Positions 6,798-12,134 of a stretch of DNA of 31,376 bases are shown one piece after another (positions within the stretch are counted from its first letter, which is position 1; each line of letters starts with the position of its first letter). Position numbers and translations under genes: made by a program. The stretch is from a virus. The DNA is taken from UHGV virus genome UHGV-0241516, one strand, 5' to 3'. The notes under the pieces were generated by a model. That model searched no databases and had not been told where the DNA came from. It saw nothing but the letters and a program-made list of their open reading frames with translations.

Positions 6798-8633
6798 TTA
6801 CCTGCCAAAGCGCGTATAGCCAACATCATGGCTGACATCAAAACCGCTGGATCGCGTTTCCATAACCCGCATACCCGGAGGCGAATTCACAAAAGAGACC
6901 TTGATCTCACCATCAACTTTTGGCGCAGAAGCTTTGTTAATCATGAAGGGATTCAGGCCTGTGGCACCGGAGGCGTTGTTTGACTGAGCCGGATCTACCG
7001 CCGGATAAGGTGTGTATCCCCGCGCCGGTATTCCCGTCCCATAAGCATCATAAGCACCCGCGCCCCACTGCGCAGAGTTAATGGCATCGACCGTGTCACC
7101 GGAACTGTCGGTAAACCACTCAATAATTGGCTTCAGCTTGTCCCACATATCCTGAAACCACTTAACAACCGGTCCCCAGTTATTGATCACCATCCCCAGC
7201 GGCGACCAGGCAAAAACCTTCTTAAGAAGTTCCCAGCCAGTCTCAAAATAAGGACCAATGGTTTCCCAGAGTTTCTTAAAATAAGGTCCGACAACATCCC
7301 AGTTAGTGATAATTAATCCCGCAGCGAGGGCTATCGCCGTCGCAATCATGCCAATCGGCGTCATCGACATGATCCTGCTGACAATACTGATGGCACCGCC
7401 AACGCCCATCAATCCCAGTTTCAGAATCGCAAGACCGGCAGCAAGCCCGACGACGCCGCGAATAACCCGGGGATTTTCATCCGCAAACTTCGTGAATTTT
7501 TCCCCTAACTCCCCCAGCCATTGCGTGATATTTTTAGCGTCACCAGAAAATGCGCCGCCAATAGCCGCAAGGCCGTTAGTTGCGGTCCCCGTCATTGCCT
7601 CCCACAGGTTGGACAGCGTACCAAGCTGAGCCTGAACACGTTTATTCAGGCTGGCCTGTTTATTCATCTTCTGCTGGATCTGATCGTAGCCATCCTTTCC
7701 TTTATCGATCAGCGCATTGACCACCTGAAGGGTTTCGGCATCATCACCAAATATTGCCTTAAGTACACCGGTTCGCTTAACGTCGGTCAGTTTTCGCAGC
7801 TTTGCCAGTTGCCTGAACATGTTATCAAGACCGCCAAAACTCCCTTTGCCATCAGTAAAATCGAGCTGTACCCCGAGTTTCTGGCGGGCCATGATTTTAT
7901 TGACGTCCCTGATTTTCTTAACGCTTAATCCGGACTGGATAACTTTTCGCAGGGCATTACCTGCCGACTCCCCGTTCATCCCCATCTGATCCATCATGAC
8001 ACTGATGGGGGCAAGACTCTGTGCAGCCTGAAGACCGTCCTTATTCACCATTTTCAGAACAGAACTGGTTTTAGTGAAGAAGGACAACATGTTGGTATCA
8101 TCAACGCCCAGATAAAACGCCTTCTGGATAGTGTCGAACAGCCCCATCATGTCTTCTGACGCCGTTCCGGTAGCATCCTGCATCTTTGCAGCAAACTCAG
8201 CAGCCGCTTCCGGTGTTTTTTTCAGTTGTACCGCAAGATAAGCTGTCGCTTTACCCACACCACCAAGAATGTTTTCTGCCGGGATCCCCTGACGCACCAG
8301 CATCTGCATCATGTTCTGGAAATCAGCCGTTGTACCGGGTAGCTGGTTACCCAGGCCAATAGCCAGTTTATTGATGTCCTGAAAGCTCTTTCCAACCTCG
8401 CCGTTCGCATCCATCATGGCGACTTTCAGCCCGGTGGCGGCGTTTTCCTGATCGGCATAAGATTTCAGGGAAAGCGTCAGACCCGCTGCCAGTCCGCCAC
8501 CAAGCGCCAGCCCACCCTGTGACGCTTCTTCCGCCTGGCGTTTAAATCCCCGGATTTTCTTTTGCATTTTCGACAGCGCGGGAGAAAGCCTGTCGACACC
8601 GGTGATCAACGCCTTAAGCTCAAATTCAGCCAT
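6798..8633 (-). CDS. Tail tape measure protein
   Basis: 611 aa, Ala/Gly-rich with long hydrophobic segments (GVVGLAAGLAILKLGLMGVGGAISIV…). Follows the frameshifted chaperone pair. ATG at 8633-8631. Confidence 0.85.
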   Translation of the reverse strand: MAEFELKALITGVDRLSPALSKMQKKIRGFKRQAEEASQGGLALGGGLAAGLTLSLKSYADQENAATGLKVAMMDANGEVGKSFQDINKLAIGLGNQLPGTTADFQNMMQMLVRQGIPAENILGGVGKATAYLAVQLKKTPEAAAEFAAKMQDATGTASEDMMGLFDTIQKAFYLGVDDTNMLSFFTKTSSVLKMVNKDGLQAAQSLAPISVMMDQMGMNGESAGNALRKVIQSGLSVKKIRDVNKIMARQKLGVQLDFTDGKGSFGGLDNMFRQLAKLRKLTDVKRTGVLKAIFGDDAETLQVVNALIDKGKDGYDQIQQKMNKQASLNKRVQAQLGTLSNLWEAMTGTATNGLAAIGGAFSGDAKNITQWLGELGEKFTKFADENPRVIRGVVGLAAGLAILKLGLMGVGGAISIVSRIMSMTPIGMIATAIALAAGLIITNWDVVGPYFKKLWETIGPYFETGWELLKKVFAWSPLGMVINNWGPVVKWFQDMWDKLKPIIEWFTDSSGDTVDAINSAQWGAGAYDAYGTGIPARGYTPYPAVDPAQSNNASGATGLNPFMINKASAPKVDGEIKVSFVNSPPGMRVMETRSSGFDVSHDVGYTRFGR

Positions 8634-9044
8634 GTGTGCGTTTCTCCTGCTCTATCCTGTTTGCCTGACTGACCAGCAAGGGAATTTCACTGATCGGCAT
8701 ATTCAGCAATTCGAAGGGATTAATGCGCCAGTAACTGGCGCAGTCAAAGAAGCGATCAGTGAGGTATTCAGCCGTCAGGCCTGGAGGAAAAAACCGGCCA
8801 CAAGCCACGCCGCTGCATTCAGGTCTGCCGGAGACATCTGGTCGACAGAGCTTTGCGGCACTTTCGCCAGCCGCACGATGTATTTCGATACCACATGCGC
8901 CAGAAGTCTGACGGACTCATCCTGATTCATCTGGTAGGGATATCCCAGCTCGCGGACATCTTTCCCGGTGGGCTCATCAAACTCCAGTACGGAGAGTGTC
9001 TCGCCATGAGCGGTAATCGGTTTCTTTAACTCAAGCTCTTTCAT
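8626..9044 (-). CDS. Tail assembly chaperone, predicted -1 frameshift fusion product (~139 aa)
   Basis: The -1 frame stays open from the slippery site to a TGA at 8628-8626, overlapping the tape-measure start. Same layout as the conserved G/GT-type chaperone frameshift between tube and tape-measure genes. Confidence 0.65.
8775..9044 (-). CDS. Tail assembly chaperone, short (zero-frame) product
   Basis: 89 aa. ATG at 9044-9042 overlaps the tube stop (TAATG). Ends TGA at 8777-8775. Contains slippery T_TTT_TTC (plus 8787-8793) near its 3' end. Confidence 0.8.
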   Translation of the reverse strand: MKELELKKPITAHGETLSVLEFDEPTGKDVRELGYPYQMNQDESVRLLAHVVSKYIVRLAKVPQSSVDQMSPADLNAAAWLVAGFFLQA

Positions 9045-11619: not shown

Positions 11620-12134
11620 CTGTGTCGTCGCTCCGGCTTCAGTGATTTACGCAATTCCCGCGCCAGAAAATAGCGTGTCCAGCTGCGGTTCTTTTCAAGC
11701 GTTTCCACCATGAAGTTATTACGTGGAGCCAGTCGCCAGCCGCTGCCACCGGATGCACCACGATGATGGCTGCGACGACGCTTTGCCCCTCGCCTCACGC
11801 CATAGAACAAAAAAGCCGGATAAAAATCACCGGTGATACGGCGGTTTCCCTCTCCATTACGCTGGTTAGGGGCTATACGTGCCATAAAACCAGGGCGATG
11901 TTTACTGGCTCTGGGTACCATATACCCAATCGAACGTGCCAGGCGTCCGGTCTGATAACCGGGGTTTTCACCCGGTGCCGACCGCGCACGGCGCATCACC
12001 AGCCGACGGGCATCACGCATATGACGCTGACCAATCGTGACAAACGCCCGCCGGACACGGGCGCGGTTAAAGCGCATCTCCGCGGGCTGCTGAAAATCAA
12101 CGTGCAAAAAGGAAGTCGTCATTGTTGCCTCCAT
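11616..12134 (-). CDS. HK97 gp10-like virion morphogenesis protein
   Basis: 172 aa, Arg-rich, in the head-tail joining cluster. Family from memory. Confidence 0.55.
   Translation of the reverse strand: MEATMTTSFLHVDFQQPAEMRFNRARVRRAFVTIGQRHMRDARRLVMRRARSAPGENPGYQTGRLARSIGYMVPRASKHRPGFMARIAPNQRNGEGNRRITGDFYPAFLFYGVRRGAKRRRSHHRGASGGSGWRLAPRNNFMVETLEKNRSWTRYFLARELRKSLKPERRHR

Follow-up and report, generated by a model that had tools for sequence, protein, structure and literature searches.

The virus genome UHGV-0241516, a stretch of 31,376 nucleotides (nt) that was analysed at its full length and is called the window here, raises the question whether a short tail gene between the tail tube and the tape measure gives rise to one protein or to two. 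The gene is an open reading frame (ORF) of 89 amino acids (aa) for a tail assembly chaperone and carries the heptamer T_TTT_TTC shortly before its stop codon. An earlier note on this DNA had proposed a programmed -1 frameshift of the G/GT type at this heptamer, and the proposal is supported by the conservation of the slip site, by the ratio of nonsynonymous to synonymous polymorphism (pN/pS) in the -1 frame, by the lack of a start of its own for that frame, by a trough of synonymous variation at the site and by positional homology to phage P2. Judged from these comparisons, the site would be, with a probability of roughly 0.9, a programmed -1 ribosomal frameshift in the tail assembly chaperone gene, homologous to E/E+E' of P2.

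The 89-aa ORF (G in the following) ends with the codons ...GCC GGT TTT TTC CTC CAG GCC TGA. The first T of the heptamer occupies a third codon position, which gives the X_XXY_YYZ register with UUU (Phe85) as P-site codon and UUC (Phe86) as A-site codon; three sense codons and UGA follow. In the -1 frame C8787 is read again, and the frame continues as PPGLTAEYL...RTHG for 53 aa (the T segment) up to a stop at 8628-8626, which overlaps the start of the tape-measure gene (ATG at 8633-8631) by 8 nt (ATGGCTGA). The +1 frame at the site is closed after 2 codons. The predicted fusion is exactly 139 aa long with the junction …VAGFFPPGLTAEYL…, and its junction peptide reads …AWLVAGFFPPGLTAE…. Thus, the ORF at 9044-8775, the heptamer at 8787-8793, the -1 frame open to 8626 and the overlap with the tape measure were all confirmed at the coordinates proposed earlier, and the fusion of about 139 aa and its junction peptide match the prediction as well. 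The first three codons after the shift (8787-8779, minus strand), CCU CCA GGC, encode Pro-Pro-Gly, a motif that stalls ribosomes in the absence of elongation factor P. This motif is replaced in relatives by PQG, PSG, PAG, PRD, YRL and others, and as it is not conserved, it is probably incidental.

The gene layout (tube at 9400-9044, G at 9044-8775, -1 ORF to 8626 and tape measure from 8633) fits the class of tail-chaperone frameshifts in long-tailed dsDNA phages (Xu et al. 2004), and a slippery sequence in the right register lies inside the overlap of both frames. The heptamer by itself is weak evidence, since in-register X_XXY_YYZ heptamers are common: the other ORFs of the window contain 27 of them in about 9,400 codons, two of which are followed by a -1 ORF of at least 53 codons. 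What lifts this site well above chance is its position at a gene end between tube and tape measure, the stop of its -1 ORF on the next start, its conservation and the purifying selection in the -1 frame. Two in-register heptamers other than this site, both TTTTTTG, are found on the minus strand at 11814 and 19353 within ORFs of 172 and 148 aa. The -1 ORFs at these places (29 and 27 codons, respectively) would stop before the normal stop, and the two heptamers are probably chance occurrences.

The purifying selection was assessed in 12 distinct gapless sequences over the 146 nt that separate the G stop from the fusion stop. Here, pN/pS was 0.27 in the -1 frame as compared to 1.26 and 1.14 in the other two frames, and variable sites fell mostly on third positions of the -1 frame (40, versus 28 and 18 at the other two positions). 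An alignment of the T peptides revealed the motif …FDCAxYWRINPxELL…QANRI…, in which A, W, P, R and I are invariant, and this protein motif is conserved down to 34% identity. The T segment corresponds to the protein family phrog_32181 (E=3e-41), which is filed under 'unknown function'.

For the conservation of the slip site, 23 loci were gathered with an alignment of diverse homologues from contigs with one genome per species, and five phage loci were added, giving 28 loci with 27 distinct sequences and chaperone identities from 100 to 40%. A separate set of 80 viral-contig loci, in which all chaperones are 100% identical, served for population variants only and not for divergence. The earlier note had made its proposal depend on the heptamer being conserved in related phages, and an in-register T_TTT_TTC or T_TTT_TTT is indeed present in all 27 distinct relatives. 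All of them have TTT as P-site codon after a codon ending in T (24 times GGT), and their A-site codon is either TTC (21 sequences) or TTT (six). The -1 frame is open for 30-50 codons past the G stop in all relatives, even though the distance from the heptamer to this stop varies (16, 31, 34, 49 or 70 nt). The +1 frame is shut within 2-6 codons in relatives of the window type and is open for 13-51 codons in several more distant ones. Conservation also extends to four distant phages of Burkholderia, Pseudomonas, Bordetella and Stutzerimonas (33-46% identity), which keep T_TTT_TTC/G and have -1 extensions of 50-63 aa ending a few nt from the tape-measure start.

The overlap of the fusion stop with the tape-measure start is a geometry shared by most relatives. 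In 13 of the 80 viral contigs (L010-L089), a GCT>GCG change in the second codon of the tape measure abolishes the fusion stop, and the fusion in these contigs extends two codons further (…THGGI).

A comparison of the window with phage SfIV (locus L007) gave additional information on how the gene pair is inherited. Sheath and tube are 98% and 100% identical, whereas G, T and the tape measure share 36%, 34% and 25% identity, respectively, and the mosaic boundary falls exactly at the junction of tube and chaperone (window position 9044). This pattern shows that the chaperone pair travels with its tape measure and is exchanged together with it as one cassette. Curiously, the T part, which is presumed to bind the tube, differs strongly between the two phages (34%) although their tubes are 100% identical.

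Constraint at the nucleotide level was followed as the rate of synonymous differences along the fusion frame in 14 distinct sequences (mean 0.44). The deepest of three troughs covers the slip site together with the short dual-coded overlap, the second deepest coincides with a hairpin, and the third with the ribosome binding site and start of the tape measure (Table 1). Background codon usage in the genes of the window is 32% GGT among Gly codons and 62% TTT among Phe codons. In a population sample of 120 viral contigs, retrieved with a pattern that permitted every synonymous spelling of Gly-Phe-Phe, GGT TTT TTC was found in 118, while the adjacent upstream Ala codon used all four spellings (GCT 81, GCC 24, GCA 9, GCG 6). 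A few copies break the heptamer. Three of them (L061, L067 and L196) read GGG TTT TTC due to a synonymous GGT>GGG change, and one sequence found twice (L030 = L178) reads GGG TTT TTT CTC, by which the T6 run is moved by one base (equivalent of window 8795-8784). The variant copies are near-identical prophages, with the chaperone and the -1 ORF both intact. Non-canonical heptamers account for 2/120 in the unbiased pattern sample and for about 2-4% of near-identical prophage copies.

The same fusion could be made in another way. This would be transcriptional slippage, in which an additional U is incorporated by RNA polymerase at the U6 run and an ordinary ribosome then reads into the T frame. 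The inserted U leads to an identical protein (GFFPPGL…), so a conserved T run and a conserved -1 ORF are equally expected under this mechanism; some relatives have T7 runs, and L030, in which the T6 run is out of register, still retains the -1 ORF. According to Sharma 2014 (PMC4066793), UUUUUUU is depleted from Escherichia coli genes in all frames, possibly through slippage. However, every divergent relative has the T run in the X_XXY_YYZ register, and perfect re-pairing in both sites is possible for one and the same tRNA-Phe species. For the E. coli RNA polymerase to slip appreciably, runs longer than U6 are usually needed. As the run is short and its register canonical, transcriptional slippage is rated as improbable. 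The homologous site of P2 is also treated as translational in the literature (PMC5009743, PMC3091744).

It has also been considered that the -1 ORF is a separate small gene of 60 aa, independently translated from a GTG at 8808. This GTG belongs to the -1 frame and precedes the heptamer by 15 nt, the GenBank record of Escherichia phage vB_EcoM-689R6 annotates the -1 ORF as a hypothetical protein, and the PHROGs database treats it as a family of its own (phrog_32181). Yet the GTG is not preceded by a Shine-Dalgarno sequence and varies between relatives, in which ATG, TTG or no start codon at all is found at this place. The -1 ORF of three relatives is devoid of start codons throughout, and several relatives have a -1 frame that becomes open only 15-24 nt ahead of the heptamer. 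Among the 27 distinct relatives, neither a conserved start codon nor a conserved Shine-Dalgarno sequence for the -1 ORF was found. The T segment therefore appears to be reachable only by a frameshift, and the 60-aa 'hypothetical protein' and phrog_32181 are most plausibly the orphaned 3' half of the fusion; a gene of its own is very unlikely.

The possibility that heptamer and open -1 frame coincide by chance and that the 142 nt between chaperone and tape measure are a non-coding spacer, which the abundance of in-register heptamers in the other ORFs (2/27 with a long -1 ORF) might have suggested, is already refuted by the comparative data, namely the low pN/pS solely in the -1 frame, the preserved protein motif, the slip site kept across Enterobacterales, Burkholderia, Pseudomonas and Bordetella, and the synonymous trough at the site.

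A programmed -1 frameshift at this place has a close counterpart in phage P2. P2 gpE belongs to the same PF10109 family (47.8 bits, as compared to 60.3 bits for the window protein), and its slip site GTC GGT TTT TTG (…VVGFL…) is found at the same alignment position as GCC GGT TTT TTC (…VAGFF…) in the window. Thus, the window protein shares the hallmark of the P2 family, a -1 slip on T_TTT_TTN at a conserved Gly-Phe near the C-terminus. Both phages shift in the -1 direction, with products of 91/142 aa in P2 and 89/139 aa in the window, both encode a contractile tail with the chaperone gene placed between tube and tape measure, both show an 8-nt overlap of fusion stop and tape-measure ATG (ATGAGTAA in P2, ATGGCTGA in the window), and both lack a downstream hairpin at stimulator distance. 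They differ in the Z base (G in P2, C in the window), in the distance of the zero-frame stop from the site (six codons in P2, three in the window) and in the surrounding tail module, which in the window is Mu-like, and not P2-like, with regard to sheath, tube, DNA-circulation protein and gp44/gp45 hub. For P2, a TTTTTTG site yielding a 91-aa E and a 142-aa E+E' without a downstream hairpin is described, and the site is conserved in P2-like phages of Burkholderia (PMC3091744). RefSeq NC_001895 annotates the frameshift of P2 (P2p25/P2p26). Such frameshifts are textbook knowledge for long-tailed phages, and experiments have established the one of the P2 homologue, where the programmed -1 frameshift of gpE / gpE+E' was reportedly characterised by Christie et al. 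in 2002.

The gpG/gpGT pair of phage lambda is said to have been worked out by Levin, Hendrix and Casjens in 1993 and by Xu, Hendrix and Duda in 2004, 2013 and 2014. It resembles the window in having two chaperones with a shared N-terminus, produced through a -1 slip towards the end of the gene that precedes the tape measure, and differs by the lack of detectable sequence homology, by a G_GGA_AAG slip site and by a non-contractile tail. No RNA stimulator is required in lambda (PMC5009743).

Phage Mu has its chaperone gp41 (Mup41) at the same position in a homologous module (sheath L, tube M, chaperone, gp42 tape measure, gp43 DNA circulation, gp44 hub), and gp41 has a weak relationship to PF10109. 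Unlike the window protein, however, Mu gp41 has 144 aa, belongs to PF23746 (Gp41_Mu) and carries its extension in the +1 frame, the Mu chaperone being reported to shift by -2 (PMC5009743; PMC2628397). The window protein did not match PF23746, with PF10109 being the one family found, and an extension of the Mu type is absent at the window site, where the +1 frame closes 2 codons after the G stop. Thus, a tail module of the Mu kind is combined in the window with a chaperone and a recoding signal of the P2 gpE type (PF10109, -1) rather than the Mu gp41 type.

From these systems, a course of events may be proposed. Ribosomes on the late tail operon would decode the 89-aa chaperone until one tRNA-Phe is bound at UUU in the P site and another at UUC in the A site. 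A minority would slip one base in the 5' direction, with both tRNAs re-pairing with UUU, and would proceed with CCU CCA GGC..., adding 53 residues and stopping at the UGA that overlaps the tape-measure AUG. The majority would remain in frame and terminate three codons later. The outcome would be two proteins with a common N-terminal part of 86 residues in a fixed ratio set by the frequency of slippage. By analogy to lambda gpG/gpGT and P2 gpE/gpE+E', the shared part may coat or bind the tape measure protein, the part encoded in the -1 frame may recruit the tube protein to begin tail polymerisation, and neither chaperone is expected to end up in the virion. We infer the ribosomal nature of the slippage and the minor share of the longer product from the established model of -1 frameshifting. 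The mosaic relationship to SfIV, in which G, T and tape measure diverge together, fits a partnership of chaperone and tape measure.

Several observations weigh against a programmed frameshift at this site. One group concerns the lack of accessory signals. No stimulatory structure was found at the classical spacing of 5-9 nt 3' of the heptamer, and an upstream Shine-Dalgarno-like element (6-17 nt in the 5' direction) was not seen by eye, without a formal scan. RNA folding downstream of the slip site, recommended in the earlier note as a check, yielded no significant structure (-6.2 kcal/mol and z=+0.3 for the 47 nt after the heptamer, z=-1.4 for 87 nt), and the only strong hairpin begins 44 nt away. 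The consensus fold of the relatives showed nothing at stimulator spacing, and an Rfam search gave no match apart from a chance CRISPR-DR hit (E=0.76). A weak consensus pairing of the heptamer itself with a downstream GGCC was not regarded as a stimulator. The site thus does not belong to the stimulated -1 frameshifts of the dnaX / IS3 type. In addition, PMC4066793 (Table S3) gives a frequency of only 0.12% for UUUUUUC in E. coli reporters with no stimulator, as compared to 0.89% with the stimulators of IS911 and 7.6% with the pseudoknot of IS3.

A second group concerns the product. Among 5.8 billion database proteins, there was no clean fusion sequence; six database proteins (P0001-P0006) were rejected as natural in-frame fusions, as the frame switches at varying places and other insertions and deletions are present, and they look like homopolymer or long-read errors, that is, sequencing noise. 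The T part did not yield a Pfam hit to PF06528 (Phage_P2_GpE, the E' domain of P2) even at E<=10, and an hhalign comparison of the T-part profile with P2 E' gave a weak colinear match (P=0.006, probability 6%). A Bordetella intermediate reached 15.8 bits against PF06528 (cutoff 23), the comparison of the T part with the Mu +1 extension gave P=0.003 with low probability, and an NCBIfam search with the T part found nothing. Homology of the T part to P2 E' or to the Mu +1 extension is therefore suggestive only. Finally, the rare GGG and shifted-T6 variants indicate that the canonical heptamer is not absolutely required for persistence in a genome; these copies may be decaying prophages or may tolerate a first-position mismatch in the P site.

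The P2 heptamer UUUUUUG reaches 0.12%, 0.25% and 0.77% in E. coli under the same three conditions (PMC4066793), so that UUUUUUC is, by these measurements, at least as slippery as the site of P2, and U_UU.U_UU.Y belongs to a class described there as favourable. The ratio of the lambda chaperones is about 30:1, and P2-type phages are said to be 2-3 fold higher (PMC5009743). The lack of a stimulator in the window agrees with the reports on lambda and P2 (PMC5009743, PMC3091744).

The hairpin inside the T segment has a perfect stem of 8 bp and, as RNA, reads UGCGCCAG-UUA-CUGGCGCA (DNA: TGCGCCAG-TTA-CTGGCGCA). It encodes C-A-S-Y-W-R in the -1 frame, and its sequence occurs once in the window. The synonymous sites of the stem are invariant in 11 of 12 relatives in which other synonymous sites are near-saturated, while the wobble position in the loop varies, and the hairpin is retained nearly base for base in L108/L109 at a chaperone identity of only 55%. 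Other lineages with the slip site lack the hairpin, among them L102, L104, L107 and the SfIV/P27/ST64B group. Thus, the hairpin is clade-specific, it is too distant for a classical stimulator and evidently dispensable for the frameshift, and its membership in the frameshift signal is doubtful. Sequestration of the Shine-Dalgarno sequence or AUG of the tape measure in connection with the hairpin was considered and rejected, as the region shows no significant structure (z=-0.9) and hardly any covariation. It is rather unlikely, but conceivable, that the hairpin is an undescribed RNA element acting on the sparsely translated stretch between chaperone stop and tape-measure start. If so, it could tune the output of the frameshift from a distance, couple translation of the tape measure to frameshifted ribosomes, or shield the late transcript from Rho or RNases where ribosome density falls.

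The element carrying the gene is an SfV/SfI-like temperate myophage, a prophage of E. coli and Shigella. The region around the chaperone shares 98-99% nt identity with the Shigella flexneri serotype-converting phages SfI, SfV and SfII and with several Escherichia phages, and is 100% identical to a prophage in E. coli AMSHJX01. A match to the prophage module is present in 1,086 of 5,426 complete E. coli genomes, which is about one in five. The 89-aa protein matches PF10109 (Phage_TAC_7, titled 'Phage tail assembly chaperone proteins, E, or 41 or 14') with E=1.9e-16 and 60.3 bits against a cutoff of 25, also corresponds to the tail protein family phrog_166, and is named 'phage tail assembly protein' or 'small tail protein E' in public records. 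A sequence search among solved structures gave no match for the chaperone, and a Foldseek search of BFVD and PDB with an AlphaFold model of the G part, which was of low quality (predicted local distance difference test, pLDDT, 67; predicted template modelling score, pTM, 0.49), gave no match at E<=0.001. Further along, the window encodes an HK97-type capsid (PF05065), an S78 prohead protease, portal and terminase, and the combination of a Mu-like tail with an HK97-like head, as noticed before, is borne out by the Pfam families of the tail genes and by the capsid. A scan for terminators and promoters gave hits no more numerous than in shuffled sequence. Coordinates are collected in Table 1.

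Table 1. Tail genes, recoding elements and synonymous troughs around the chaperone gene of UHGV-0241516 (window positions; codons are numbered along the predicted fusion).
Feature	Position	Strand	Remarks
Tail sheath	10896-9400	minus	498 aa; Phage_sheath_1 domains PF04984, PF17482, PF17481
Tail tube, directly upstream of the chaperone	9400-9044	minus	118 aa; PF10618, E=2.4e-33; phrog_185
Zero-frame tail assembly chaperone ORF G, equivalent of P2 gpE	9044-8775	minus	89 aa; PF10109; UGA at 8777-8775
Complete recoded unit, predicted fusion GT, equivalent of P2 E+E'	9044-8626	minus	139 aa
Slippery heptamer T_TTT_TTC (U_UUU_UUC)	8793-8787	minus	X_XXY_YYZ register
-1 frame T segment	8787-8626	minus	53 codons, PPGLTAEYL...EKRTHG, and UGA at 8628-8626
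Hairpin in the T segment	8742-8724	minus	8 bp; 44 nt 3' of the heptamer
Shine-Dalgarno sequence AGGAG of the tape-measure gene	8648-8644	minus	within the end of the T segment, 10 nt before ATG; read from the sequence
Overlap of fusion stop and tape-measure start	8633-8626	minus	8 nt, ATGGCTGA
Tape measure, downstream partner gene	8633-6798	minus	611 aa; PF10145, E=1.3e-26; tape-measure PHROGs
DNA-circulation protein	6779-5409	minus	456 aa; PF07157 (DNA_circ_N)
Mu gp44-type hub	5412-4333	minus	359 aa; Mu gp44/GpP-like hub domains
Synonymous trough at the slip site and short dual-coded overlap	codons 83-90		AGFFPPGL; minimum 0.06, lowest of the unit
Synonymous trough at the hairpin	codons 101-108		DCASYWRI; minimum 0.16, second deepest
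Synonymous trough at the tape-measure AGGAG (8648-8644) and start	last ~7 codons		…EKRTHG; minimum 0.15

In the public records examined, the recoding event is not marked. No joined or fusion coding sequence was present in the RefSeq/GenBank records of SfI and SfV, in vB_EcoM-689R6, in the PGAP annotation of the E. coli prophage or in eight related phage records, and the genome papers of SfI and SfIV do not mention a frameshift. The validated tail-chaperone cluster of GeneTack is HK97-like and not of the SfV type, and the SfV-type chaperone is not among the prophage clusters of Table S4 in the available passages of Sharma 2014 (PMC4066793). A description of a frameshift for the SfV group was not found; an earlier listing of SfV orf13 in the survey of Xu et al. 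2004 is possible. Taken by its sequence, the site of the SfV group thus presents itself as a real and conserved -1 frameshift of a known sort that is unannotated in the public records examined.

The finding raises no new question, and its chief value lies in annotation. Marking the recoding event would correct the records of a widespread E. coli module and of Shigella serotype-converting phages, and the orphan family phrog_32181 would gain a name. Beyond this, it provides a well-supported case of a Mu-type contractile tail module that uses a P2-type -1 frameshift of the chaperone instead of the -2 shift of Mu, and of a chaperone pair and tape measure that are exchanged between phages as one cassette.

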